Shown: positions 2,031-59,676 of the stretch, piece after piece
Position numbering within the stretch: position 1 is the stretch's first letter
How the letters are laid out: every line of letters starts with the position of its first letter
NCBI GenBank assembly: GCA_963708305.1
Contig: CAVPSH010000003.1
Coordinates: 319,957-383,956, forward strand
DNA from: an uncultured bacterium
GTDB taxonomy: Bacteria > Verrucomicrobiota > Verrucomicrobiia > Limisphaerales > UBA11358
Direction of reading: 5' to 3'
Length of the DNA stretch: 64,000 nt
Made by a program: the position numbers and the translations under genes
The notes under the pieces: model-generated
What the model was told of the DNA's origin: nothing
Seen by the model: only the letters and a program-made list of their open reading frames with translations
Database searches by the model: none

Positions 2031-4019
2031 ATGAGTACGGCCATCCAATCGGGATTTTTCAGCCGCCAGGCCGGCGTTTGCCTTTGCTGGGGGTGGATAC
2101 TCGCGCTTCCGGCCGTCGTTTGGGGCCAGACGAACTATTATGCCACCAATGGAACTGAATACACCATCGTTGGCGCCCTGCCCGGTGATCAGGTTCATCC
2201 CGATGTGGCCGTGACGACCAGTGGCGGTTTTACCGTCTGGCAGGACAACATCACTGATGGCGATGGCTGGGGGGTGAGTGCGATGCAGCTCAACGGCGCC
2301 CTCTCCGGCTCAGGCAGCTCCTTCCGCGTCAACGTACAAGCCACGGGTGATCAGGAAAATCCGCGGGTGACGTTGTTGAAAGGCGGCGGCGCGGCTTTTG
2401 TGTGGCAGGGTGGGCAAAATGGATTCCAGCACATTTACGCCCGGTTTCTCTCTTCCAGTAATACGTGGGTGACGGGTGACGTGATGGTCAATGCCTCCAC
2501 GAATTATTTTCAAGTGAACCCCGCCATCGCCACCCTGACCAATGGCAATGTTCTCGTGGTTTGGGCCAGTTTTAATGAAGCCGCCTCCGGCAGCATGCAG
2601 GATGTCTATGGCCGGATTTTTTCGCCGTCCGGCGCGCCGGTCACCGGCGAATTTTTGATCAATCAGTTCACGTCTTACAACCAACGTTCGCCGGCGGTGG
2701 CGGCGCTGGCCAACGGCGGGTCCGTCGTTGCCTGGGTGTCCGAACAGCAGCGAACGTCCGCGCCTAATCCCGGTTCAGGTTCATTCAACGTCATCAACAC
2801 GGCGCCTGTTCCCAGCGTGGACATTTACGCGCAGCTTTACGACGGCAATGGGGTGGCACAAGGAACGAATCAATTGGTCAATTCGGATTCCAATCCTTGC
2901 GCCGATCCGGCCGTGGCCGCGGGCTCGGATGGCGGTTTTGTTGTGACTTGGGACGCGCGCGACATGACCAACCCCATTGGCAACGGTCTGGATATTTATT
3001 CCCGTTCTTTTTCCGGCGCCGGCGTGGGCGGCACTGTCCTGCGCGTTAATTCGCATCTTTACGGTGATCAATACGGACCGCGCATCAGTGCCTTGGGAAC
3101 CGATTATCTGATGGTGTGGACGAGCCTGGCGCAGGACGGTTCGCAGCAAGGGGTTTATGGACAATTTGTACGCGGCAATGGTTCGGTCGTGGGCGGTGAA
3201 TTTCGGGTAAACACCACGACGGCAAATTCGCAAATTCAGCCGGTCGTCGCGTCGGATGGGGTCGGCCAATTTCTGGCGATTTGGACCAGCTTCAGCGGTT
3301 TGCCGTATGGATTCGATCTGTACGCGCAACGTTATATCAACACCCAACAACCACTGGCCCCGCTGCCGGCGCCGTTTGTCTATGCGCCGTTTGTGGTGAG
3401 CAACAATATTTACCAACCGCAATTGCAGGTTTCCTGGCCGCCCGTGACCGGCCTTTCCCTTTCCAATTACGAAGTTTACGTGGACGGCGCGTCAACGCCG
3501 ACAGTGGTGACCACCAACAATGTGTGGACGATGACGTCGGCCAACGGGTTGGCCGCCAGCAGCACGCATTCATTCCGGGTGGCTTATGCTACGACGGATG
3601 GCCGCCAGTCACCGTTGTCACCCTCGACCAGCGGCACGACCTGGAGCGGTGCCAACTATTACGGCATTCCGTTTGAATGGATGGAGCAATATTACGGTTA
3701 CAACTTTGTCAACTGGCCAACCAACGTGAATGCGCCGCTGGCCCCCGGCGGGTTGAGTTTGATGCAGGTGTTCCTGAGCGGCGGTAATCCGTTGGACCCC
3801 GGCACGTGGTTGCGAACAACTTTGAGCAACACGCCGCAAGGCTTGTTCCTGAGTTGGAACCCCCAGCCGGGATTCACTTATCAGGTGCAATCTACTGCAT
3901 CGATTGGCGGTGTCTGGACCAATCTGAGCTCGCCGCGATTTGCGGCGGGCAGCGGTGATTCAATTTTTGTCGGCAAGAGTTCCGTGGGCTATTACCGCGT
4001 GCTGCTCCTGCGCCAGTAA
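2031..4019 (+). CDS. Secreted repeat protein: seven propeller-like repeats, an FN3-like region and a shared C-terminal module
   Basis: Hydrophobic N-terminus. Seven ~55-aa repeats (Q..P.VA...GGF.V.W......D.Y.R.F...G...G.EF.VN) at nt 2184-3341. C-terminus LSWNPQPGFTYQVQ...YYRV. Confidence 0.7.
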   Translation: MSTAIQSGFFSRQAGVCLCWGWILALPAVVWGQTNYYATNGTEYTIVGALPGDQVHPDVAVTTSGGFTVWQDNITDGDGWGVSAMQLNGALSGSGSSFRVNVQATGDQENPRVTLLKGGGAAFVWQGGQNGFQHIYARFLSSSNTWVTGDVMVNASTNYFQVNPAIATLTNGNVLVVWASFNEAASGSMQDVYGRIFSPSGAPVTGEFLINQFTSYNQRSPAVAALANGGSVVAWVSEQQRTSAPNPGSGSFNVINTAPVPSVDIYAQLYDGNGVAQGTNQLVNSDSNPCADPAVAAGSDGGFVVTWDARDMTNPIGNGLDIYSRSFSGAGVGGTVLRVNSHLYGDQYGPRISALGTDYLMVWTSLAQDGSQQGVYGQFVRGNGSVVGGEFRVNTTTANSQIQPVVASDGVGQFLAIWTSFSGLPYGFDLYAQRYINTQQPLAPLPAPFVYAPFVVSNNIYQPQLQVSWPPVTGLSLSNYEVYVDGASTPTVVTTNNVWTMTSANGLAASSTHSFRVAYATTDGRQSPLSPSTSGTTWSGANYYGIPFEWMEQYYGYNFVNWPTNVNAPLAPGGLSLMQVFLSGGNPLDPGTWLRTTLSNTPQGLFLSWNPQPGFTYQVQSTASIGGVWTNLSSPRFAAGSGDSIFVGKSSVGYYRVLLLRQ

Positions 4020-4025
4020 ATCTGT

Positions 4026-6410
4026 ATGAGGCAATTGAAAAAAACAATTTTGTGGATTGGCTGTCTGGCCCTTGGTCTTCAGACCGCGGGGGCATTTTCA
4101 TTGTTGGGTCCAATCACCGGAACGCCGGATGCGACCTGGCAGATTACTTTAATCGGATACAATCCGCTGACAACCGGCGCGGCGCCTCCCGGTTTCATTG
4201 ATTCCCTTGTCACAGGGCCTAAAAATCTCGGCGAGGGCTACCGCCGCAATACGCCTGGAATGTATTACGCGTTTGATGTGAGTTTTGGCGATTACTTTGG
4301 TTCAAATGGCGAGTTTGCCGTGCAACAGGCCTTTGATCTTCTCAATGGCGTGATGAACGGCCAGGCGAACAATCCCCTCTATTTGTACAGTCCGACCAAC
4401 GGCATTCTGGGTGACACCAATGGTGCTCCCGGCATTACCCTGTTTCCGACCAACAGCGTTGACAATTATAGCGCGAATTTGGCGGAATTCCCTTTCAACT
4501 CACGGGGTGAAAATTACACGGCGAGTGCTTTGGGACTGCTCGATTTAAAATCGGTGACGCTGTCCTTGCTTGTGGAACAGTTGGGGCTGGCTGATTCGGT
4601 TCGTTACATTTGGGCTTTGCGCAATCGGTACACCGGTGTGATCGGGGAATCCTGCAACCCGCCCGGGCCTGGTTTCCTTATCGAATATAATGTGATTCAA
4701 AGAAATTTTGACATTGTTCCGAGCGCGCTCAATCAGCTTCAGTATTCGGCTTACGTCAACGGCGAGCTTTATTCCTATTGGATTGATGAAAACTGCGGCG
4801 CTGTTGCTGCCTCGCCGCCGGACGTGGATGCGTTGGAAATTCCTGCGGATACCGTGAATAATGTTCCCCCGGTTGCTTCAGCCAACGGAGAGTTTCCCCT
4901 GCTCACCGGCTTTTTTTATACCGGATTGACGCGGGACGATGTGGGTGGACTGCGCTTCTTATATAGCACCAACAATTATGACACCCCCAGTCCGGGTTAT
5001 CTCGAATCGGCGGCGGCCGGGAGCACATTGTTGAGCTTCGGTCAACCTCAGTTGCTTTTCACTTCCAATTTCAACGTGTTGGCTTCTGCCTCATTGACCA
5101 ATAATCCGGCCACGCTCCAGGCATTATTCCCGGGATTGATCGTTGGGAACAACCCGGTCACTTATTTCAGCAACGTGGTTTCGCCGAATGTCATCGCCTT
5201 TTTCACCAATTATATCGGCAGTCCGGCGGGCGCACCGGCATCGCTGGTGGTGGTGACCAATCTGGCGACCAACATTGTGCAGTTTTTCCAAAACTCCTTC
5301 GGCAATGTGGTCACCAACAAGACTTACACCAATGCCACCTTTGCCCTCCAAACCATCACCGTGGGCCCGATGGTCGGTTCGCCGGCCGGTTCCCCGTTTG
5401 TGACCAACGTCACCTTTCAAACGTTCCAAACCAATGTGCCCTCGGGAGACTACTTCATCATTACGAACGGGACCTGTGGACCCAACATTATTCAGACCCT
5501 GCAGACCAATGTGAACATCGTAACGAATCTGGTCGTAGGGACGACCAATGTGAATGGTCAAAGTTTTGTCGAAAACCTGATTTCCTACTTCACGAATTAC
5601 GCCTTTGTGGTGCTGCCCTGTACCTTGGCGACCAATGGACCCGCCGACTATCAGGGCATTGGCAACATGCAATTCATTCGCGTATCAGATGTGAGCGATC
5701 CCTATGATTACCAAAGCGGACAATTCATCACGCCCATTACGAACCAATACACCATGGTGGTCTTTACCAATGGCCAGTACATAACTCAGAAGTTCCAGCG
5801 GATAGTGACCGCACCTGATTTCCTGATTGCCGCAGTAGATCAATTAAATGGTCCGGATGCGCTTCCTACCGAGGTGCCTGATACCCGGAATATCAGTTTT
5901 AATCAGGCGAACATACAGACCAGTCTCTCCGGTCCTGGTACGATCAATCCTCCAACCCTTTTTACCTTTAACAAGGTTGGGCCGGTTTTTGAGAACGAAT
6001 CTCCCGCTTCGATAATCGGACCGAGTGGTGCCGGTCGGGGTTTTGTATGGGGATCGTTCGATGGCACAACCAACGCGCCAGTGGTTTACCCTAATGGCAC
6101 CAGCCTGGCAAACCTGGCCAATGAGGCGGTGACTCAGATATCTCCGCCGCCGCCAGTCTTGCCAACTGGCACCAATGGGGTAGCTTATAATGTGGCGTTT
6201 ACGGCAAATGGCACAAGCGGAACTGTCACTTGGACCTTGGCGAGCTTTTCGGCGGGACTCCCGCCGGGGCTGAATCCTCTGTCACCCAATGGTGTGTTGT
6301 CGGGGACCCCGACCCGGAGCGGAACCTTTGACAATATTGTGGTTCAGATGACGGATTCCAGCACGCCGCCGCATGTCGTGCAGACCATTTATTCGTTGAC
6401 GATCAATTAA
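4026..6410 (+). CDS. Large secreted Asn/Thr-rich protein with a C-terminal putative Ig (He_PIG/cadherin-like) domain
   Basis: Signal peptide MRQLKKTILWIGCLALGLQTAGA. C-terminus LPTGTNGVAYNVAFTANG...GLPPGLNPLSPNGVLSGTPTRSGTF matches the 'putative Ig' pattern. Starts 7 nt after the upstream stop. Confidence 0.65.
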   Translation: MRQLKKTILWIGCLALGLQTAGAFSLLGPITGTPDATWQITLIGYNPLTTGAAPPGFIDSLVTGPKNLGEGYRRNTPGMYYAFDVSFGDYFGSNGEFAVQQAFDLLNGVMNGQANNPLYLYSPTNGILGDTNGAPGITLFPTNSVDNYSANLAEFPFNSRGENYTASALGLLDLKSVTLSLLVEQLGLADSVRYIWALRNRYTGVIGESCNPPGPGFLIEYNVIQRNFDIVPSALNQLQYSAYVNGELYSYWIDENCGAVAASPPDVDALEIPADTVNNVPPVASANGEFPLLTGFFYTGLTRDDVGGLRFLYSTNNYDTPSPGYLESAAAGSTLLSFGQPQLLFTSNFNVLASASLTNNPATLQALFPGLIVGNNPVTYFSNVVSPNVIAFFTNYIGSPAGAPASLVVVTNLATNIVQFFQNSFGNVVTNKTYTNATFALQTITVGPMVGSPAGSPFVTNVTFQTFQTNVPSGDYFIITNGTCGPNIIQTLQTNVNIVTNLVVGTTNVNGQSFVENLISYFTNYAFVVLPCTLATNGPADYQGIGNMQFIRVSDVSDPYDYQSGQFITPITNQYTMVVFTNGQYITQKFQRIVTAPDFLIAAVDQLNGPDALPTEVPDTRNISFNQANIQTSLSGPGTINPPTLFTFNKVGPVFENESPASIIGPSGAGRGFVWGSFDGTTNAPVVYPNGTSLANLANEAVTQISPPPPVLPTGTNGVAYNVAFTANGTSGTVTWTLASFSAGLPPGLNPLSPNGVLSGTPTRSGTFDNIVVQMTDSSTPPHVVQTIYSLTIN

Positions 6411-13796: not shown

Positions 13797-13876
13797 TAAT
13801 TCGGAGGGGCGAGTTCTATAAGCCCCTGATTTTTAACTTTTTGGACTCGCAGAGCTCGTCCCTCCGAAATTTATTT

Positions 13877-14260: not shown

Positions 14261-14312
14261 TCGTCCTGCGACAAGTTAGCCGTCGCTGGCGTCAGCGTCA
14301 ACGCGTCCGGTC

Positions 14313-14419
14313 TCTTAATCTTGCTCTTAATCATTATCTTAATCTTCCCGGTGATTATTAAGAACAGGATTAAGATTAAGTGGAACAGAAAATCTGTGTT
14401 TCATCTGTGTTCATCTGTG
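14313..14419. repeat. Intergenic oligomer arrays: CTTAATC units facing GATTAAG units, then tandem CATCTGTGTT
   Basis: tctCTTAATCttgctCTTAATCattatCTTAATCtt...aGGATTAAGATTAAG, followed by ctgtgttcatctgtgttcatctgtgg. Confidence 0.7.
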
Positions 14420-16951: not shown

Positions 16952-17027
16952 GTAGCCGCCGACGTCAGTCGGCGCAAATCGAATAATGGCGAATGATGAT
17001 ATGGCGCGAACTGACGTTCGCGGCTAC
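16952..17027. repeat. Long imperfect hairpin between convergent genes (possible bidirectional terminator or repeat element)
   Basis: GTAGCCGCCGACGTCAGTCGGCGC (16952-75) faces GCGCGAACTGACGTTCGCGGCTAC (17004-27). 24-nt arms, 28-nt AT-rich loop. Confidence 0.6.
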
Positions 17028-32500: not shown

Positions 32501-32599
32501 CAGCCCTTTAATATAGCAGGAGACGACGTAAGGAGTCTCTAATTTCGGTTTTAAAGTCGGAGAGTATTGAGACTCGTCACCTCGTCTCCTACAGGAAAA
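32499..32599 (+). repeat. About 100-nt structured element, copy A (paired with 36241-36340)
   Basis: gcagcc...AGGAGACGACGTAAGGAGTCTC...GAGACTCGTCACCTCGTCTCCT...ggaaaac. About 83% identical to copy B by eye. Overlaps the stop codon of the upstream gene. Confidence 0.8.
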
Positions 32600-36240: not shown

Positions 36241-36340
36241 GCAGCCTGTTAATAAAGTAGGAGACGATGTGAGGAGTCTCTAACTTCGGTTTCAGAATCG
36301 AAATAAATTGAGACTCGTCACCTCGTCTCCTGCGGAAAAC
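36241..36340 (+). repeat. About 100-nt structured element, copy B (paired with 32499-32599)
   Basis: Same ends and same 3' arm GAGACTCGTCACCTCGTCTCCT as copy A. Begins 11 nt after the upstream stop codon. Confidence 0.8.
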
Positions 36341-38236: not shown

Positions 38237-38510
38237 GAACCAAAGATAACTTTTTATTGCAAAAGAACAAGCTGGATCAAATCCAAGAGTGTGCCCGAAA
38301 ATTCAACTTTTCCAGTAGGAGCCAAGGTGACGGGGCTCAAACCTCTCGAAAATCGGGTACCGTCGAGGAAAGAATGAGCTTCCTCACGTCGGCTCCTACA
38401 TTTTCCAGACGCGCCCCAACAGAAGGAAACGAAGTTAACGAAGTCTCTTTGTTATCCAAGCCATATTCATTTCGCCTTTTCTTTCAACGGCCAACCATTA
38501 ACTTTGCCAC

Positions 38511-43959: not shown

Positions 43960-44289
43960 TTACTTATCAGCAATCAAATAGCGCAGGCCATGCTCGTCCG
44001 CCATGAGCACGCGGAGATGACCGGGCAGTTGCACCAATTCACGCCGGAACATGCGTGCGTCCTTTACCATGACCTCAACCGTCGGCCAGAGCGCCAGCGC
44101 AAAAATCAAACAGGCTAAAGCGGCGGCGCTGCTCCAGGTCAACCGGCAGGCGAAGGACGTTCGCGGCCGCGCCACCAAAACCCAGGGCAATTGCGAGCGC
44201 ACGCGCGGCGGGAACTGTTCCCAATACTCGTCCGACCGCGTCGGCAGCGGGATGGCTTTCAATCGCGATTCAAGTTCAGAGTCATTCAT
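43960..44289 (-). CDS. Anti-sigma factor (single TM), putative
   Basis: 109 aa with one TM (WSSAAALACLIFALALW). Overlaps the ECF sigma stop by 8 nt. Confidence 0.55.
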   Translation of the reverse strand: MNDSELESRLKAIPLPTRSDEYWEQFPPRVRSQLPWVLVARPRTSFACRLTWSSAAALACLIFALALWPTVEVMVKDARMFRRELVQLPGHLRVLMADEHGLRYLIADK

Positions 44290-44836
44290 GGTTCCGGTCG
44301 CCGCCTGCGAGCCAGCGTTTCAATTTTTTCTTCGCGGAAAAAACGCGCCACGAAACAGTCGTTTCCGAGCAACGCAGCACTTTTGCCGCTTCCGCGTGAG
44401 TCAAACCGTCGTAAATTGTGAGCACAACTGCCGCGCGTTGCTTGGCCGGCAATTTCAGCAGCGCCGCCTGTGCGCGTTGTGCCATTTCAGCTTCGGCCGG
44501 CGCAGGTTCGGCGGCGATTCGTTGCACTGAAAATTCGTTCGCGCAATTGACATAAGCCTGAGAACGGCGTGCCTCATTCCGCCGCCAGTTCAAGCACGTG
44601 TGAACAGCGATGCTGTAAAGCCACGTGGAAAACTTCGCCCGTCCGTTGAACGAGCCGATCTGCTCGTAGGCGCGCAGGAACGTCTGCTGCGCCAAATCTT
44701 CGGCGTCGGCGGGCGAGCCAGTCATCCGAAATGTCAGAGCATGAACCATTTGTTGATGTTTTCGCACAAGCTCCTCAAAGGCCGACTTGCTGCCATTTTG
44801 ACTTTGCAACACCAAATCATCATCGGCGTCGGCCAT
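44282..44836 (-). CDS. ECF (sigma-70 family group IV) RNA polymerase sigma factor
   Basis: Region 2 AFEELVRKHQQMVHALTFRMTG...AEDLAQQTFLRAYE...FSTWLY. Region 4 LPAKQRAAVVLTIYDGLTHAEAAKVLRCSETTVSWRVF. Confidence 0.9.
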   Translation of the reverse strand: MADADDDLVLQSQNGSKSAFEELVRKHQQMVHALTFRMTGSPADAEDLAQQTFLRAYEQIGSFNGRAKFSTWLYSIAVHTCLNWRRNEARRSQAYVNCANEFSVQRIAAEPAPAEAEMAQRAQAALLKLPAKQRAAVVLTIYDGLTHAEAAKVLRCSETTVSWRVFSAKKKLKRWLAGGDRNHE

Positions 44837-44964
44837 GGAGGTTGCTTTTGAAAACTTTGAACCCGTCGCCGCCGGAATCCTTTGAATTTTTTTTCCGCCG
44901 CTGACCGGGCGGGGAATGGCGACACCGCCACCCTCGGCAAGGGGCAACGCAGAAGTGGTCATCT

Positions 44965-45047
44965 GATTTACGATTTGCGATGGGCGACTGACGCGCTGCT
45001 CCCAACCGCGAGTTGGGTGATCAATCGCAAATCGTAAATCGTAAATT
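44965..45047. repeat. Inverted heptamer-array element (GATTTAC units facing GTAAATC units), copy 1
   Basis: GATTTACGATTTGCGAT ...center with hairpin CCCAACcgcgaGTTGGG... ATCGCAAATCGTAAATCGTAAAT. Confidence 0.8.
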
Positions 45048-45049
45048 CC

Positions 45050-45625
45050 TCAAAAATACTCCGGTTCGTTACCGGATTTCCACTTGATGTTGCAGCCGAT
45101 GCTGGCTTTTTGGTTCGGCGAAACGGGCTTGCCGGCCAGCACGGCGTCCAGCGCGGCGCGCAAATCCTTTCCGGTTACGGGAAGGCCGTTACCAGGACGG
45201 CTGTCGTCAAATTGGCCGCGATAGACGAGCTTGCAGTCTTTGTCGAAGAGATAAATGTCCGGCGTGCAGGCGGCCCGGTAGGCTTGGGCGACGGCTTGCA
45301 ATTCGTCGTAAAGATACGGAAAAGTATAACCCGCGGATTTCACTTCTTCCTTCATCTTTGCGGGGCTGTCTTCGGGATAATTCTCCACGTCATTGGAGTT
45401 GATGCCGACAATGGCAACGCCGCGAGGCAGGTAATCGCGGGCGAGTTGCGCCAGGCTGGTGCGGATGTGCTTCACATAGGGGCAATGGTTGCAGATGAAC
45501 AGAACCAGCAGCGCGGACTTGCCTTTGAAATCCGCCAGCGAAACAATTTTCCCGTTGGTATCCGGCAATTTGAAATCGGGTGCGGCCGTGCCGAGCGGCA
45601 GCATGGTTGAAGGTGTCAGTGCCAT
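45050..45625 (-). CDS. Thioredoxin-fold thiol-disulfide oxidoreductase (AhpC/TSA-like family)
   Basis: APDFKLPDTNGKIVSLADFKGKSALLVLFICNHCPYV (CxxC). 191 aa from the Met at 45625. Confidence 0.8.
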   Translation of the reverse strand: MALTPSTMLPLGTAAPDFKLPDTNGKIVSLADFKGKSALLVLFICNHCPYVKHIRTSLAQLARDYLPRGVAIVGINSNDVENYPEDSPAKMKEEVKSAGYTFPYLYDELQAVAQAYRAACTPDIYLFDKDCKLVYRGQFDDSRPGNGLPVTGKDLRAALDAVLAGKPVSPNQKASIGCNIKWKSGNEPEYF

Positions 45626-45686
45626 GTGGGGAATATAAGTCCAAGGTGCAAAGTTCAAAGACCAAATTTTCCAGGTTTAGGGTGTT

Positions 45687-45756
45687 CGATTTACGAATTA
45701 CGCGACCTGGACGAGTTGTGAAAAAGCTCGTAAATCGTAAATCGTAAATCGTAAAT
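45687..45756. repeat. Inverted heptamer-array element, copy 2
   Basis: CGATTTACGAATTACG ...ACGAGttgtgaaaaagCTCGT... AAATCGTAAATCGTAAATCGTAAAT. Antisense ORFs here translate as IYDLRFTIY. Confidence 0.8.
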
Positions 45757-46302
45757 TTGAAAGCTGTGCCGAAGAACATTGTTTATTTTGATCTGGAAAC
45801 GCAGAAATCCGCCGAGGAAGTCGGTGGCTGGAACCACATCTCCAAAATGGGCATGAGCATTGGCGTGACGTTCAGCACGGGGCGCGGCGATTACAAGATT
45901 TATGGCGAGAAGCAGGTGAACGACCTCATCGCAGATTTGCAACGCGCTGACCTCGTGGTGGGTTTCAATGTTTTGCGTTTTGATTACGAGGTATTGCACG
46001 GTTACACGACGTTCGACCTGCGCCAGTTGCCGACACTGGACATGATGGTGGAGTTGCAAAACGAACTGCAGCACCGCCTTTCGCTCGATTCGATTGCGAC
46101 GGCGACGTTTGGCGTGGAAAAAACGGCGGAGGGCATGCAGGCCATCCGCTGGTTCAAGGACGGCAAGCTCGCGGAAATCGCGGAGTACTGCTGTTACGAC
46201 GTGAAGCTGACGAAGCTCGTCCACGAATACGGCCAGAAACACCGCCAGTTGCATTACCACAATCGTTTCGGCAAAAAAATGACGGTGCCGGTGAGTTGGT
46301 AG
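45757..46302 (+). CDS. RNase H-like / DEDD-type 3'-5' exonuclease domain protein
   Basis: IVYFDLET...VGFNVLRFDYEVL...YCCYDVKLT acidic-residue pattern. 181 aa. TTG/GTG start is uncertain. Confidence 0.6.
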   Translation: MKAVPKNIVYFDLETQKSAEEVGGWNHISKMGMSIGVTFSTGRGDYKIYGEKQVNDLIADLQRADLVVGFNVLRFDYEVLHGYTTFDLRQLPTLDMMVELQNELQHRLSLDSIATATFGVEKTAEGMQAIRWFKDGKLAEIAEYCCYDVKLTKLVHEYGQKHRQLHYHNRFGKKMTVPVSW

Positions 46303-46590
46303 AGTTGGATTCCGACGACAAGTCCAGTAATGTGCTGATTTAAGGAGCGCGGCATTTATGCCGCTTCACGGTCTGTTGCCATTGGTGCGCCGAAGCGGGC
46401 TGAAGCCCGCGCTCCGGAGGCAAACGAAGACAGAGCTACAAGTTCCCGTTGCTTTCACGGAAGCACGATTTAATCTGATGACGTGCTTAAGCAACGGTTT
46501 CAAATCTGCTTTGCCGCGGAGAAGGCGAATGGATTTTGCCTGTGTCCTTCAGGCTGTCTCCGATGAACCTCTTTTCCAAGGCGGGAATCG

Positions 46591-48412
46591 GTGTGGGCGG
46601 CTGGCAGTTGGTCTCCGCCCAAGGTTCGCCTCCCGTTTGTATCGGAACTGCGACATTATTCCTGGGACAAGTTCCGTCATGACGCGATTGCCGGCGCGAC
46701 TTTGACGCTGGTTTCCATCCCTCAGGCGATTGGTTTCGCGCTGATTCTCGGCCTGCCGCCGATGCCGGTGATTCTTTCCGTGGTGGTCGGAGGATTTTTC
46801 AGCGCGTTGTTTTTTTCCTCGCACCATCACGTCTTCGGGCCGACCACGTCCGTTTGCCTCATCACGGCGGCGACGCTGGCGGCCAACACCGATCTCGGCC
46901 TGCACCCGCTGCAGTTGGCCGCCTACCTGGCGTTTATGATCGGCGTCGTCCAGTTCGTCGCCGGGCTGTTCAATTTCGGCGAAGTCACGAAATTCATCTC
47001 GCGTTCGGTGGTGGTGGGCTACACGACGGCCATCGGTGTGCTGTTGATCTTCAGCCAACTGCACAACGGGATGGGATTTTCCAGCCCGGCGGGCGACGAT
47101 TTCCTGAGCACACTTGAAGAAGTGGGGGTGGCCATCGGCGTGGGTAATTTTTCATGGTGGTCCGTCGGTATTGTCGCACTGACGCTCCTGATTTTTGAAG
47201 GCATCAAACGCTGCGCGCCCGGCCTGGCCGGAGCCATTATTGGGGCTGGCTTTTCTGGCGATGGCCGCGCGCGTTTTCGCCCATTTTTATCATGAAGTGC
47301 CTTTTCATCTGGTCAAGGACGAGGGTGCCCTGGCTGCGGCGTTGCCGACGCTCAAACATCTTCCCACCTTGCAGGATCAACTGCCCATCGTTCGCCAGTT
47401 GGCCGGCAGCGCTCTCGCCATCGCCATCATCGGGATGCTCGAAGCCACGGCCATCACCAAGACGCTGGCTGCCCGCAGCGGCCAGCATCTGGATCCCAAC
47501 CAGGAACTACTGGGCATGGGCGCAGGCAATATCGCCGCTGCACTGTTCGGGCTGACACCCGGCTCCTCCTCCTTCACCCGTTCGGCGGTCAATTATCAGA
47601 GCGGCGCCGCTTCGCAGCTTTCGTCCATGCTGAGCAGCGTTACCGTGCTGCTCATCCTGCTGTTCCTGACTCCGCTCTTCAACTATATCCCCGTGCCCGC
47701 GCTGGCTGCCCATCTCATGCGGGTCGGCTATAAACTGATTAACCGCTCGCAAATCCGGGTCTCGACCCGGTCCACCCGCTCGGACGCCGTCGTTTTTTTC
47801 TCGACACTGGGAGCCGCACTTTTTCTCAGGCTCGACACCGCCATTTACGTGGGCATTGGTGTGGCGCTGGCGTTATTTCTGCAAAAAACCAGCACGCCGA
47901 CGCTGGCGGAATATACCTTCAATGAAAGCGGGCAACTGGCCGAACTGCGTGATCGGAAACAACGTCCCAATCCCCAAATTTCCATTATTCATGTCGAAGG
48001 CGAGCTGTTTTTCGGCGCCGCGGATCTGTTCCAGGACCAAATTCGCCGCCAGGCCGAGGACGAAAACATCCGCGTTTTCATTCTCCGCATGAAAAATGCG
48101 CGGCATCTCGATGCCTCCACCGTCATGGCGTTGGAATCACTTCACGATTACCTGCGCAAGACGGGCCGTTATCTGCTGATCAGCGGCAGCAGTCCTGATG
48201 TTACCCGCGTTCTGCGCAACAGCGGTCTGCTGAAACAAATCGGCGAGGAGAACATCTTTCCGGCTGAGATCAATCCGACGATTGCCACCAAACGGGCACT
48301 GGTACGCGCCCGGGAACTGTTGCCGCAGAAGGCCGATGTCCGGTTGTTTTACGGCCGTCCGCTGGACAACGACTCCGGAGTTCTCAAAGAAATCAGTGAT
48401 TACGAAATTTGA
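46591..48412 (+). pseudogene. SulP-family anion permease with a C-terminal STAS domain, frameshifted (+1) within 47195-47250
   Basis: DAIAGATLTLVSIPQAIGFALILGLPP in ORF 46591-47295. Continues as GLAFLAMAARV...EATAITKTLA...STAS (IIHVEGELFFGAAD) in ORF 47195-48412. Confidence 0.85.
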
Positions 48413-48510
48413 GGTCGTTACGTTCCTGCTTCGAGCCAGCCGTTTCGGGTTGCTCAGTCTTCAAAAATGAATTGTTCCCCGATTCATTTCACGGCAAGCT
48501 ATGCGCTCCT

Positions 48511-49880
48511 ATGCAGCAGGTAAACCTGGGAATGATTGGCGGCGGCACGGTGGGCAGCGGCGTGTTTCACGCGCTTCAGCTCAACGGCGGGCTCATGGCT
48601 TCGCGCATCGGGGTCAAGGTCGCCGTCCGCAAAATCGCGGTCAAAGCGTTCGACGAGCCGCGACCGTATCCCATTCCGCGTTCGCTGATGACGACGGACT
48701 GGCAAGGAAGTCGTCAATGATCCGGGCATTCACATCGTTTCAGAACTCGTCGGCGGCACGACCCTCGCTCGCGAAATTATTTTGTACTGCGCTGAAACTC
48801 GGCAAGCCGGTCATCACGGCAAACAAGGCGTTGCTGTCCGCGCACGGCGAGGAGCTTTTTGCCGCGGCCAAAAAATACGGCACCAATCTTTATTACGAGG
48901 CCAGTGTTTGCGGTGGCATTCCCATCATCAAATCGTTGCGCGAAGGTTTTGTCGGCAACCGCATCAACGCGCTTTACGGCATCGTCAACGGCACCTGCAA
49001 TTACATCCTCACCCGGATGAAGCTGGAAGGCGCGGATTTCGCCACGGTGCTGGCGGACGCGCAAAAGCAGGGTTACGCCGAAACGCCGCCGGACCTCGAC
49101 ATTGACGGCTGGGACGCCCAGCACAAGATCGGCATTCTCGCCTCGCTGGCGCACGGTTTCTGGGTGAATCCAAAAGAAATTCACGTCGAAGGCATCCGCC
49201 ACATTTCAGCGATGGACATCAAATTTGCCAGTGAACTTGGTTACACCATCAAACTGCTCGGAATCATCAAACAGATTGACGATATACGATTTACGATTGA
49301 CGCCTCAAATGAAAAACCGGCGTGTAAATCGTCAATCGAAAATCGCAAATGCAGAGTGCAGGTTTCGGTGTATCCCACCCTGATACCGAACTCGCATGTT
49401 TTGGCGGGCGTAAATCATGTTTTCAACGCCGTCTTTGTCCGCGGTGACATTGTCGGCGACACGCTGTTTTACGGGCGCGGCGCGGGCAAAGACGCCACGG
49501 CCAGCGCGGTCTTGAGCGATCTGGCGGACGCGGCGCTCGACCTGAAATTCGGCACCAAACACCGCGTGCCGCCGTTTGTGCCGCACGAATGCGCCGGCGC
49601 CGTCGTGCCGATTGAAGACGTCGTTTCGCAATATTTTGTACGTCTGGATGTCGTGGATCGGCCGGGCGTGCTGGCAAAAATCGCGGCCATTTTCGGCCAG
49701 TCGAAAATCGGCATTTCGTCGGTGATTCAACCCGAAGGCCACGAAGGCAAAAGCGTGCCGCTGATTTTCATGCTGCACTATGCGACCAACGGCGCGGTGA
49801 CAAAGGCGTTGGCCAGAATCGGCAAATTGTCGGTGGTCAAAAGCAAGCCGGTGATGATTCGGGTGGAGAGTTTCGAATAA
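48511..49880 (+). pseudogene. hom: Homoserine dehydrogenase with two +1 frameshifts (48706, 48785) and an in-frame repeat-element insertion
   Basis: MQQVNLGMIGGGTVGSGV (frame a), EVVNDPGIHIVSELVGGTTLAREIIL (frame b), ALKLGKPVITANKALL...C-terminal ACT domain (frame c). Confidence 0.9.
49278..49350 (+). repeat. Inverted heptamer-array element, copy 3, embedded in-frame in hom
   Basis: gaCGATATACGATTTACGATTgacgcc tcaaatgaaaaacc ggcgtGTAAATCGTCAATCGAAAATCGCAAAT. Translates as DDIRFTIDASNEKPACKSSIENRKC. Confidence 0.75.
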
Positions 49881-49908
49881 TTCCGCGCTCTGCGCGCGAC
49901 CTCAGAAC

Positions 49909-51261
49909 ATGATTCTTTTCCGCAGCACCAACGGCCAGGCGCCCGCCGTCAATTTGCGCGGGGCATTTCATGCCGGACTGGCCCCGGACCGCGGGCTTTA
50001 TTTGCCCGAGAAATTTCCGCAACTGGCGCCGGACGAAATCGCGGCGTTTGCCCAATTGCCCTATCACGAAATCGCCTTTGGCGTTCTGTCAAAATTTACC
50101 GAGGGGATCATTTCCAACCGTGATTTGGCCATCCTGTGCCGCGACGCGTACCATTTCCCGATTCCGCTGGAAAAAATTCACGACCGCGTATTCCTGATGC
50201 GGCTGGACCAGGGCCCGACGGCATCGTTCAAGGATTTCGCCGCACAAATGATGGCGCGGATGTTCGGGCACTTTCTGCGCGACGACGGCCGGCAGGTGAC
50301 CATCCTCACCGCCACCAGCGGCGATACCGGCTCAGCGGTGGCGCACGCCTTTCACGGAGTACCGGGAGTGCGGGTGATCGTGTTGTTTCCCATCGCCGAA
50401 GTCAGCGAGAGCCAGCGCAAGTTGATGACCACGCTGCGCGACAACATCCGCACCGTTGCGATTGACGGGAAATTTGACGATTGCCAGGCGATGGTGAAAC
50501 GCGCCTTTGCCGATCCCGATTTGAAGCACATTCCGTTGTCTTCCGCCAATTCCATCAACATTGGCCGGCTCCTGCCGCAGAGCGTTTATTATTTTTACGC
50601 CGCTTCCCGGCTGGCAAAACCCGGCGAACCCACGGTCTTTTCCATTCCCAGCGGCAATTTTGGCGATGCCATGGGTGCCGTCGTCGCGCGGGAGATGGGT
50701 TTGCCGGTGAAAAAGTTGATTGTGCCGGTGAATGACAACGACGCCTTTCCCACATTTCTTGCGAGCGGCCATTACGACAAAGTCGTGCCCTCGCGCAACT
50801 CGCTCTCCAATGCGATGAACGTCGGCCACCCGAGCAACCTCGCCCGGCTCGTGGCGATTTACGGCGGGCAGATGGACGAGACCGGCAAAATCCACAAGCA
50901 GCCCGACCTTGCCGCGATGCGCCGTGACGTATTCTCCACTTCGGTTTCCGACGAGCGCACGCGGGCGGCGATCCGGGATTTCTGGACGAAATATCAATTG
51001 CTGCTTGAGCCGCACGGCGCAGTGGCGTGGCAGGGCTTTCTCGACTGGCTCGCCGTCGAACCGCTTGGCGACGCGCCGGCCGTGATTATCGAAACCGCAA
51101 ATCCGGCGAAATTCCCGGAAGAAGTCGAAAAAGTTGTCGGCTGGCCTCCCGACGTTCCGCCGGCGATGGCCGCCGCCATCAACCTGCCGGAGGATTTCGA
51201 CCGGATGGACGCGGATTACGGGAAATTTCGCGAGTACCTGGTGCAGCGTCACGCGGCTTGA
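49909..51261 (+). CDS. thrC: Threonine synthase
   Basis: PLP lysine motif [42 protein letters not shown]. 450 aa, intact. Confidence 0.9.
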
Positions 51262-51304
51262 TTGCCGGCGCGTTTCTGGCATCCTTTCCGTTCCAAAAAC
51301 TGCC

Positions 51305-52527
51305 ATGGCTTTGATCGTCCAAAAATACGGCGGCACCTCGGTCGGCAACACCGACCGCATCAAAAACGTCGCGGCGCGCGTGGCCAAATATCGCGCGCAA
51401 GGCGATCAGATTGTCGTGGTGGTTTCGGCCATGAGCGGCGTGACGGATGGCCTGATCAAATTGGCCAAGGACATTGCGCCGTTGCCGAGCGAACGCGAGA
51501 TGGACATGTTGCTGGCGACCGGCGAACAACAAACCATCGCGCTCACGGCGATTGCGCTGCACGCGCTTGAACGTTCCCGCCGTTTCACTCACCGGGGCGC
51601 AGGCGGGCATCGTGACCGACGGCGTCCATACCAAGGCGAAGATTCACAACATCACCCCGAAGAAAGTCCGTGACCTTTTGAAACAAGGCAACGTCGTCAT
51701 TGTCGCCGGTTTTCAGGGTGAAACCCCGGAAGGGCCAGATCACCACGCTGGGCCGCGGCGGTTCGGACTTGACCGCGATTGCGCTGGCGGCCGCGCTCAA
51801 GGCCGATCTTTGCCAGATCTACACGGACGTGGACGGCGTTTACACCGCCGACCCGCGCATCGTAAAAGATGCGAAGAAACTGGAGGAAATTTCCTATGAC
51901 GAAATGCTCGAACTGGCCAGTCTCGGCGCCAAGGTGATGCAGTCCGCTCGGTGGAATTCGCGAAAAAATTTGGACGTCGTATTTGAAGTCCGTTCCAGTT
52001 TGAATGACAACCCCGGAACCATTGTGAAAGAAGAAACCAAAAGCATGGAAGACGTCGTCGTGCGCGGCGTTTCACTCGACAAGAATCAGGCGAAGGTCAC
52101 GCTCGTCGGCGTGCCTGACAAACCCGGCGTGGCGGCGCGCATCTTCAAGGCGCTCGGCGACGCAACCGTTAACGTGGACATGATCGTCCAAAACATCAGT
52201 CATGGCAGCGGCGTGCCGGCCACCGACCTCTCATTCACCGTGGACAAGCCGGACTTGCTGAAAGCGCAAAAGGTGATTGACGGCCTGAAAAAAGAGCTCG
52301 GTTTCCGCGACGTGATTGCTACGGAAAAGATCGGCAAACTCTCCATCGTCGGCGTGGGCATGCAAAGCCATACGGGCGTGGCCGCAAAGCTGTTTGAGAC
52401 ACTGGCCAACGAAGGTGTGAACATTGACATGATTTCCACCAGCGAAATCAAAATTTCCGTGGTGATTGATCTGGCCAAGGGCGAAGCGGCGATGAAAGCC
52501 GTCCACGCGGCGTTTATCGAGAATTAA
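51305..52527 (+). pseudogene. lysC: Aspartate kinase with two +1 frameshifts (~51567, ~51733) and a short compensated out-of-frame stretch (51944-51975)
   Basis: [14 protein letters not shown]...[12 protein letters not shown] (frame a), [17 protein letters not shown] (frame b), [14 protein letters not shown]...two ACT domains (frame c). Confidence 0.9.
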
Positions 52528-58866: not shown

Positions 58867-59676
58867 TTGCGTGAAATTCTCCGCGTGGAACGACTTGGAA
58901 AAAATCACTGTGGCTACCACGGCGAGACGATTGAGGTCCGTGCCGTGTTGCGCGACATTGAATTCGCAGCGCAGCAACAGGGTTGGACCGTTGAAACCTT
59001 CGGCCGGCAAGGCGAGTTCAATTTGATCGCCCTGCATCGTGCGCCGGTTTCATTCCCCAACCCGCCATCCCCCATCCGCCTTTACCTTTCCACGGGCATT
59101 CATGGCGACGAACCTGCGGGACCGCTGGCCGCGTTGCGGTTGCTGCGAGAGAATCATTGGCCGCCGAACGCGGAACTTTGGTTCTGCCCGTGTTTGAATC
59201 CAATGGGCTTCATGCTGAACCGACGTGAGAATCCCGCCGGCAAGGATTTAAACCGTGATTACCGGCATCCGGAGACTGCGGAAGTCCGTGCCCACATTGC
59301 GTGGCTGGAGCCCCAGCCGCGATTTGACGTGTATCTCTGCCTACATGAGGATTGGGAATCACACGGTTTTTATCTTTACGAACAAAATCCTGACGGCAAG
59401 CCTTCGCTCGCGGAAACCATTATTGAAGCCGTGCAAAAGATCTGTCCCATTGACGCGTCGGAAGTCATCGAGGACCGCCCGGCGAAAGGCGGCGTCATCC
59501 GACCGAATCTCGATCCGAACACGCGCCCGCAATGGGCCGAGGCGTTTTACTTGATTTTGAACAAATCACGGTTGGGCTGTACGCTGGAGGCGCCGTCGGA
59601 TTTCCCGTTGCCGGTTCGCGTGAATGCGCTGGTCACAGGTGTGAACGCGGCGTTAAAATCGTTCGATCCGGTTTGA
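58867..59676 (+). CDS. M14-type zinc carboxypeptidase / succinylglutamate-desuccinylase-like protein
   Basis: STGIHGDEPAG (HxxE zinc site), NPMGF...RENPAGKDLNRDY, LHEDW. TTG start is uncertain. Confidence 0.7.
   Translation: MREILRVERLGKNHCGYHGETIEVRAVLRDIEFAAQQQGWTVETFGRQGEFNLIALHRAPVSFPNPPSPIRLYLSTGIHGDEPAGPLAALRLLRENHWPPNAELWFCPCLNPMGFMLNRRENPAGKDLNRDYRHPETAEVRAHIAWLEPQPRFDVYLCLHEDWESHGFYLYEQNPDGKPSLAETIIEAVQKICPIDASEVIEDRPAKGGVIRPNLDPNTRPQWAEAFYLILNKSRLGCTLEAPSDFPLPVRVNALVTGVNAALKSFDPV

Follow-up and report, generated by a model that had tools for sequence, protein, structure and literature searches.

Several described classes of short bacterial repeats bear on the element analysed here, a quasi-palindromic pair of heptanucleotide arrays inside the homoserine dehydrogenase gene (hom) of an uncultured Verrucomicrobiota bacterium (Limisphaerales, UBA11358; GenBank assembly GCA_963708305.1, contig CAVPSH010000003.1, positions 319,957 to 383,956 of the forward strand). 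This whole stretch of 64,000 nucleotides is referred to as the window, and all coordinates are positions in it. Rickettsia palindromic elements (RPEs) are described as ~100–150 bp long, tagged with CGTC and similar over their full length within each family, with a conserved peptide (Ogata et al. 2000; PMC10969869, PMC3733652). Both Rickettsia and the verrucomicrobium Opitutus terrae are known to harbour repetitive extragenic palindromic sequences (REPs) within open reading frames (ORFs; PMC3733652). The third reference class consists of long simple sequence repeats (SSRs) with heptanucleotide units, including the short tandemly repeated repetitive sequences (STRR) of cyanobacteria, the TAACTGA repeats of Beggiatoaceae, Cyanobacteria and Bacteroidetes (PMC4679880) and the GGGAATC/GGGGAYT repeats of Xanthomonas and Nostoc (PMC4692102). 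Heptanucleotide repeats are reported there to be the most abundant class of long SSRs in most genomes, and polymerase slippage is held responsible for them (PMC4679880 citing Mrazek 2007; PMC4692102). Their forward units contain stop codons in all three frames (PMC4679880, PMC4692102); consequently, only one orientation of such units can be coding.

The element in hom resembles the RPEs in behaviour, while its construction and dynamics resemble those of heptanucleotide SSRs. Our favoured explanation, to which we assign about an even chance of being correct, is that it belongs to a family of quasi-palindromic repeats dispersed in Limisphaerales-like Verrucomicrobiota of soil and peat, that the hom copy lies in frame and is merely tolerated by the protein, and that the members of the family are SSR hairpins rather than elements moved by a transposase.

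The heptamer element in hom

The hom gene (48511–49880, forward strand) encodes NAD-binding, catalytic and ACT domains and carries two +1 indels in this assembly. The names of proteins with 93–94% identity place the organism among Limisphaerales-like Verrucomicrobiota. The intragenic element occupies 78 bases (49274–49351) on the same strand and consists of four left heptamers, a 22-nt centre and four right heptamers. The left arm (49274–49301; GATTGAC GATATAC GATTTAC GATTGAC) is read as I-D-D-I-R-F-T-I-D, the centre (49302–49323; GCCTCAAATGAAAAACCGGCGT) encodes A-S-N-E-K-P-A, with its outer bases forming the inner stem ACGCC/GGCGT in the predicted fold, and the right arm (49324–49351) reads GTAAATC GTCAATC GAAAATC GCAAATG, where the second unit is altered and so lacks the TAA that its canonical form would place in frame. 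The element keeps the reading frame at both ends, as the initial annotation had proposed, and accounts for most of a variable loop of 28 codons (QIDDIRFTIDASNEKPACKSSIENRKCR; 49272–49355, forward strand) between the strands TIKLLGIIK and VQVSVYPTLIP.

The window contains exactly three such elements, the other two being located in intergenic regions at 44965–45047 and 45687–45756, in agreement with the initial annotation. The claim that these are three copies of one element holds for the heptamer arms, which are common to all, and fails for the centres, which are unrelated. The 14-mer CGTAAATCGTAAAT, allowing up to 2 mismatches, has 13 matches in the window and every one of them falls inside the three loci; shuffled versions of the window yield a mean of 0.34 matches, and 13 matches were reached in none of 100 shuffles, so that the similarity of the heptamers exceeds the background of the window. 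An nhmmer search with a profile of the hom inserts from 25 orthologues likewise finds only these three places in 64 kb, at 74.7, 44.8 and 37.6 bits, and Tandem Repeats Finder reports a period of 7 with 3.4–4.1 copies at each of them, that is, three or more tandem copies of a 7-nt unit above chance expectation, as in heptanucleotide long SSRs. The arms form inverted arrays, 21–26 nt at 81–86% complementarity, comparable to the terminal inverted repeats of MITEs (miniature transposable elements with inverted repeats), and all three elements fold better than their dinucleotide shuffles (z -3.1 to -6.4). Read along either strand, the element has its T-rich arm upstream of the A-rich one.

Comparison with orthologues shows that the hom repeat is an insertion. 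Orthologues without the repeat, e.g., that of the syntenic locus L003, have at this place a seven-residue turn, K-[LI]-x-G-G-C-R (K-L-E-G-G-C-R), rather than a segment of equal length, and because the loop of the window protein has 28 residues, the net gain is 21 amino acids (63 nt); the initial estimate of roughly 23 added residues has to be corrected accordingly. The empty allele reads AAG ATT GGC GGC GGC TGC and the filled allele ...ATTG[71 nt]TGC, which means that 8 nt (GCGGCGGC) between ATTG and TGC were replaced. No target-site duplication, as found in MITEs, is seen on comparing empty and filled hom alleles. The expectation that Hom proteins normally have only a short linker here is supported by the turn of the empty orthologues as well as by solved structures: in sequence alignments, 3MTJ has 2 unaligned residues at the loop site, and the loop of 6DZS is ~10 residues longer at the site. 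We relied on these alignments because an AlphaFold2 model of the Hom protein P0002 (76 close homologues; mean pLDDT, the predicted local distance difference test, 54.7, and below 50 in the catalytic domain) was too poor for a fold search or for judging exposure. The model places strands on either side of the insert, which would put it, with low confidence, at the tip of a beta-hairpin, where it would enlarge a tight turn at the surface.

The quality of the assembly raises the question whether the element could be an artefact of error-prone long reads. Relative to its orthologues, the hom gene of the window has single-base insertions near 48708 (48705–48710) and at ~48784, which distribute it over three frames, and the genes for a SulP transporter (46591–48412) and aspartate kinase (51134–52527) are split into two and three ORFs, respectively. 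The indels in these three genes fall at short homopolymers, and the same genes are unbroken in L003. Since single-base indels split all three, either the long-read assembly is uncorrected or error-prone or the genes are decaying, in which case hom is broken upstream of the element. The element itself is no artefact, because at least 27 independent metagenome assemblies, made in several projects, contain the 84-nt loop region at an unchanged length and in the same frame. Of 117 close clusters of Hom proteins, 70 likewise have a 28-residue loop. This explanation can be regarded as refuted, and the insert is shared among many related genomes.

The pattern of sequence diversity shows that the arms are conserved as DNA and not as protein. 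Among the 27 loci with a full insert, diversity in the flanking parts of hom is 0.39 at codon position 3 and 0.075 at positions 1+2, compared to 0.14 and 0.11 in the heptamer arms and 0.47 and 0.32 in the centre (0.37 over all positions). The left arm alone, whose units over 25 orthologues are ATTGACG, ATTTACG, ATTTACG or ATTGACG, and ATTGACG, has a third-position diversity of 0.11. The lowest value in any 9-codon window of the flanks is 0.19, and the conservation of the arms is significant at p<1e-5 (permutation). Because conservation of the arms reaches the same level at all three codon positions while the centre drifts, the arms are constrained as nucleotides, the centre is close to neutral, and the peptide is free of protein-level selection. 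The neutral rate of divergence of the centre also indicates that the hom copy is old. In these respects the arms look like tolerated "selfish" or structural DNA residing in a gene.

These figures bear on the alternative that the extra loop is a regulatory or interaction-related adaptation of Hom, with the DNA repeat incidental. The identical loop length in the 70 protein clusters and the consistent lack of stop codons are what one would expect of such an adaptation. However, the codon-position pattern is the opposite of protein selection, the centre is unconstrained, and relatives only 6–9% diverged have wholly different peptides (VEGRGSRVEG..., IADCRLPIAD..., KAEGGKRKAEN) or no loop at all. 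Consequently, we consider this alternative very improbable.

The evidence for translation of the insert is indirect but good. With the canonical sequence CGTAAAT, unit 2 of the right arm would bring a TAA into frame; none of 25 orthologues has the canonical form here, compared to 16 of 25 for R1 and 20 of 25 for R4, and unit 2 is also the most variable arm codon. Since the stop-bearing unit is avoided in frame and none of 76 hom loops contains a stop codon, translation through the element seems likely. Phase-variable switching of the frame is not seen, as all 76 loops are in frame and stop-free and only frame-preserving lengths occur. The earlier suggestion that the protein tolerates the element is in keeping with these stop-free, in-frame loops.

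Allelic variation at the hom site

SSR dynamics are indicated by the variety of arrays found at one and the same codon-defined position. We compared 81 hom loci, i.e., the window and 80 orthologues, of which 79 were classified; 5 loci recovered later were added to the tally, and L002, L004 and L006 were excluded as duplicates of other loci. The site is empty in 28 loci and holds a GATTTAC-type element in 32, GATTGCC-type arrays with a non-complementary right arm in 11, GTCGAGG arrays in another 11 (in some of them together with a further array, ACTCCGC or GAACTCC, that is not complementary), and GCGGAAA arrays in 2. Some of these arrays are perfect four-unit repeats of GATTGCC or GTCGAGG. Inserts of types other than GATTTAC, such as GATTGCC and GTCGAGG, fold no better than shuffled sequences, and outside this site the 716 kb of related loci contain no GTCGAGG or GCGGAAA arrays. 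Because unrelated heptamer arrays fill the same site in other lineages, the variation at hom points to simple-sequence-repeat dynamics, which the initial annotation had not considered.

The number of units differs between close relatives, as is characteristic of heptanucleotide SSRs. At a flank divergence of 4.4%, the GTCGAGG array numbers four units in L173 and a single one in L176, and the left arm consists of four units in L137 vs. one in L156. The steps are of three units, or 21 nt, and loop lengths of 7, 13, 19, 21 and 23–28 amino acids are found across the Hom relatives.

The loop state follows the phylogeny of the gene poorly. Relatives 6–9% apart can differ in it, the neighbour-joining tree of hom is star-like and poorly resolved with loop states interleaved, and we therefore dropped counts of gains and losses in favour of an association test. 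The association between loop state and flank similarity is significant only within ~60–150 nt upstream. Most of the window hom is closest to the empty, syntenic loci L169 and L182, and the 134 nt adjoining the insert are closer to the insert-bearing L127–L129. Because of this mosaic beside the insert, transfer by short-patch homologous recombination fits the data, and the hom allele seems to pass between lineages in this manner.

Dispersed relatives and other heptamer arrays

The two intergenic members in the window, neither assigned to a strand, are both positioned next to gene starts and keep their positions in relatives. The first (44965–45047) fills the gap between the stop codon of an AhpC/TSA-family gene (45050) and the start of an extracytoplasmic function (ECF) sigma factor gene (44962). 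Its arms are GATTTAC GATTTGC GAT... and ...ATCGCAAATCGTAAATCGTAAAT, with a 17-nt stretch that is 100% complementary, fold z-scores of -6.4 and -4.2, and an nhmmer score of 44.8 bits, and it is orthologous and equal in length in L003, L169 and L182. The second (45687–45756) has the divergent AhpC/TSA-family gene on one side and an RNase H-like gene on the other; its right arm, CGTAAAT x4, ends ~10 nt before a likely GTG start, and syntenic variants are present in L003, L160, L169, L173 and L174 and absent in L182 and L200.

Hairpins of like design are found in metagenome-assembled genomes (MAGs) of Verrucomicrobiota. Members of the family have ~4 GATTnAC heptamers to the left and ~4 GTnAATC heptamers to the right of a short, G+C-rich centre with a small stem of its own; the inner junction, GATTGACGCG...CGCGTAAATCG, is common to them, and the centres are nearly all unique; many right arms end in ...CGTAAATG at a start codon. 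The abundance of roughly 1 array per 50 kb is an extrapolation from the 716 kb of related loci. An exact pattern search with the hom centre matched only hom copies, and a profile search then recovered an intergenic element at 239–318 of L096 (MAG SPRUCE 400), which at 72 bits reaches a score similar to those of the hom copies and has the arms and the centre (TCGAAAGGC...CCGGCGCG) in common with them. Its end lies one base ahead of the ATG of a PyrD-like ORF, and the canonical units with TAA are retained in its right arm. With this intergenic copy, at least one whole element is present at two unrelated loci.

On a wider scale, CGTAAAT x3 was found in at least 120 loci from many phyla, often beside other heptamer arrays. 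Among the 117 CGTAAAT arrays in the matches listed, the modal size is 4 units, an inverted partner is located upstream in 16, and a long ORF starts within 45 nt downstream in 49, with a peak at 3–5 nt, compared to 21 on the other side. This intergenic, start-directed placement is typical of heptanucleotide SSRs. In viral contigs CGTAAAT x3 occurs in 43 loci, whereas two composition-matched control heptamers occur in 0 and 1; a third control, CAGTAAT, occurs in 39 and apparently represents another repeat family. Array formation is restricted to specific heptamers rather than arbitrary ones. As a separate observation, the CAGTAAT x3 matches in viral contigs (L250–L288) comprise many arrays per contig, on both strands, in ~25 contigs.

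The placement of these arrays is one reason to consider that the repeat is a functional cis-element of RNA or DNA, e.g., by offering an array of sites to an RNA-binding protein or by acting as a leader in which translation stops in all three frames, and that the hom copy is kept by selection. In addition to the bias toward ORF starts, the preferred size of four units, the right arms that end at start codons and the recurrence of CGTAAAT in viral loci, this alternative can account for TAA in each frame of the forward units and for arms that are conserved at every codon position around a drifting centre, and a translational role has been proposed for the TAACTGA repeats (PMC4679880). On the other hand, the interior of hom has no downstream start to serve, and other lineages hold non-complementary or unrelated heptamers or none without visible cost. 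The folding of the GATTGCC- and GTCGAGG-type inserts at shuffle level also speaks against it, as does the lack of covariation: RNAalifold on 25 inserts finds nearly invariant pairs, with 1 compensatory pair in 20 and a covariation term of +0.35, and a selected RNA structure is consequently unsupported. A search of Rfam gave no match up to E=1 over 44000–50500, and a terminator/promoter scan called none of the three elements an intrinsic terminator. We find this alternative improbable, although it is a live one.

A different alternative is suggested by the L096 copy, namely that the repeats are non-autonomous mobile elements resembling MITEs, RPEs or REPINs (REP doublets forming hairpins), whose arms and centre were copied by a transposase encoded elsewhere and entered hom once or several times. 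A dispersed family with terminal inverted arms, the sharing of both centre and arms between the hom inserts and L096, the scattering of the loop state across the hom tree, the intra-ORF REPs of Opitutus terrae and Rickettsia (PMC3733652), and the recurrence of the 4+centre+4 design with another heptamer in a SuhB-like gene (see below) would all be expected of such an element. Several findings speak against this: the insertion lacks a target-site duplication and is unclean, in that 8 nt of the old turn were replaced; nearly all copies have unique centres; several relatives have orthologues of the intergenic copies at the same length; the neutrally diverged centre of the hom copy indicates an old allele, and its mosaic flank fits homologous transfer; the GTAG tag is absent; and the GTCGAGG and GCGGAAA arrays, absent from the remainder of the 716 kb, occupy the same place. 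We regard transposase-driven mobility as unlikely, and it too is a live alternative. The initial proposal of a small mobile or recombinogenic element is thus supported as far as a dispersed palindromic family, with its intergenic twin in L096, is concerned, and it is unsupported with respect to mobility of the transposon type.

Heptamer arrays are also found in other housekeeping genes, of which the related genome L155 provides three. Its SuhB-like gene has ~24 inserted amino acids (3000–3070) encoded by four units of GAYGAGT and four of ACTCATC around a centre, at a place corresponding to a beta-hairpin of E. coli SuhB; its RdgB-like gene (4023–4051) has GTCACTC x4 and 9 extra amino acids; and its ValS gene (1710–1741) has ~29 extra amino acids including a heptamer array. 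In the window, an ORF for an M14-family metallocarboxypeptidase (58867–59676) has a degenerate CATCCCC-like array in a loop (59051–59080). Orthologues have in the same loop the 7-residue periodic peptides LRTPHSALR (ACTCCGC), SIRNPQSAIR (AATCCGC), STLSSQPST (TCAACCC) and IRCQTPDARI (GCCAGAC), and the loop length ranges from 12 to 27 amino acids among the window and the orthologues.

Additional repeats were noted in the window. A 73-nt hairpin repeat (AGGAGACGAYGTRAGGAGTCTC ... GAGACTCGTCACCTCGTCTCCT) is present in two copies (32518–32590 and 36259–36331), has stops in most frames and is apparently non-coding. Inverted TCTTAAT/ATTAAGA-like arrays at 14311–14419 are followed by three tandem 10-nt units (ATCTGTGTTTC), and L174, L180 and L200 have related CACAGAT/ATCTGTG arrays, in inverted pairs, on the downstream side of the AhpC-family gene, which suggests additional hairpin families with tandem-repeat arms. 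G+C-rich intergenic hairpins are found at 46344–46415 (GGAGCGCGGC...GCCCGCGCTCC) and 13800–13868 (TTCGGAGGGGCGAG...CTCGTCCCTCCGAA). Other inverted repeats of the window (I6–I9, I11 and I23) were considered as in-frame insertions and rejected, as none is convincingly located in a real gene and their stop-free frames look spurious.

Relation to known repeats and origin of the element

The likeness to the RPEs noted in the initial annotation is a likeness of behaviour. Both are families of short palindromes that occur in intergenic regions and in frame within unrelated, conserved housekeeping genes (here hom and the SuhB-like, RdgB-like and ValS genes of L155), both add a translated peptide where the fold tolerates it, and neither has a known dedicated transposase. 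Because the genes of L155 hold heptamer arrays too, the comparison is fair in this respect. It does not extend to full-length similarity and a conserved peptide, since the heptamer elements have only arms in common and their peptides differ by lineage. Compared by description, the heptamer elements also differ in that their arms are tandem, their centres are mostly unique, the type of unit at one site depends on the lineage, and the element resizes in 7-nt units. Moreover, RPEs reside in obligate intracellular alphaproteobacteria, whereas the heptamer elements are found in free-living Verrucomicrobiota.

Similar considerations apply to REPs and REPINs, which are likewise small palindromes, often inverted dimers, sometimes located in ORFs and capable of forming hairpins or cruciforms. 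The arms of the heptamer elements are 28-nt tandem arrays instead of a single 20–40 bp stem-loop, the elements have no GTAG tag, and CGTC occurs only inside CGTCAAT units. The window does contain long REP-like hairpins with GTAG...CTAC tags, in intergenic positions at 16952–17027 and 38315–38399, which constitute a distinct family. MITEs are similar in being short, non-coding, dispersed and provided with inverted ends, and in their capacity for in-frame fusions; the heptamer elements differ from them in the lack of both a target-site duplication and an internal sequence conserved across copies. No related autonomous insertion sequence turned up in the 64-kb window, where no systematic search for transposases was made. 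Thus, the definitions of RPEs and MITEs both fail, for want of full-length similarity and of a target-site duplication, respectively.

The heptanucleotide SSRs have more in common with the element: tandem 7-nt units, typically 2–6 with four preferred, a variable copy number, a mostly intergenic location near gene starts, and unit-specific families that extend across distant phyla. There are differences in architecture and location. The published heptanucleotide SSRs are direct repeats (MacGregor reported one indirect repeat in 170 sets), whereas the hom element consists of two inverted arrays around a G+C-rich core hairpin, with arms conserved throughout the clade. The published intragenic cases are located at the termini or peripheries of proteins or in hypothetical proteins, in contrast to the hom copy, which lies in the middle of a conserved enzyme.

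If the repeats are indeed SSR hairpins, as we favour, they would originate and change in size through replication slippage or template switching at the hairpin. Within coding DNA the preservation of the frame would act as a filter, so that only changes by multiples of three units survive. What holds the arms near the family consensus could be either conversion against the many further copies or a repeat-recognising factor, and the hom allele would then pass among related lineages by short-patch homologous recombination.

Several points weigh against this explanation. A one-step jump from one to four units is hard to achieve by simple slippage, and expansion of the arrays cannot be told apart from contraction. 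The conservation of the arms across lineages with ~20% divergence exceeds what slippage alone can provide and needs conversion or selection, and the centre common to the hom insert and the intergenic copy in L096 suggests copying of the whole element, as a mobile element would do. The copy number is extrapolated, with 64 kb of the source genome covered, and the star-like tree leaves the numbers of gains and losses unestablished. Taken together with the evidence discussed above, transposase-driven copying and a selected cis-acting function are the live rivals, while protein adaptation and artefact are disfavoured.

A more speculative possibility, which we consider rather doubtful, is that GATTnAC/GTnAATC arrays are recognised or propagated by sequence-specific machinery, such as a hairpin-copying enzyme or a repeat-binding protein. 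The repeats would then constitute a new self-propagating or domesticated class that colonises the tips of beta-hairpins in housekeeping proteins throughout a clade of Verrucomicrobiota and is retained, within genes as well, by selection at the nucleic-acid level, and the stop-bearing arrays found across phyla would serve as insulators or leaders that stop translation in all frames.

For annotation the practical consequence is a warning: loops of this type inflate alignments of protein families, and 7-residue periodic peptides encoded by heptamer arrays are not protein features. The hom loop also amounts to a natural experiment, in which dozens of related genomes have an empty site, a hairpin or other heptamers at a single position, and with it selection on the protein can be distinguished from slippage, conversion and selection at the DNA level. 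The element links heptanucleotide SSRs, whose abundance in bacteria is still unexplained, with in-frame palindromic "selfish" DNA of the Rickettsia type, and does so in free-living Verrucomicrobiota of the soil.

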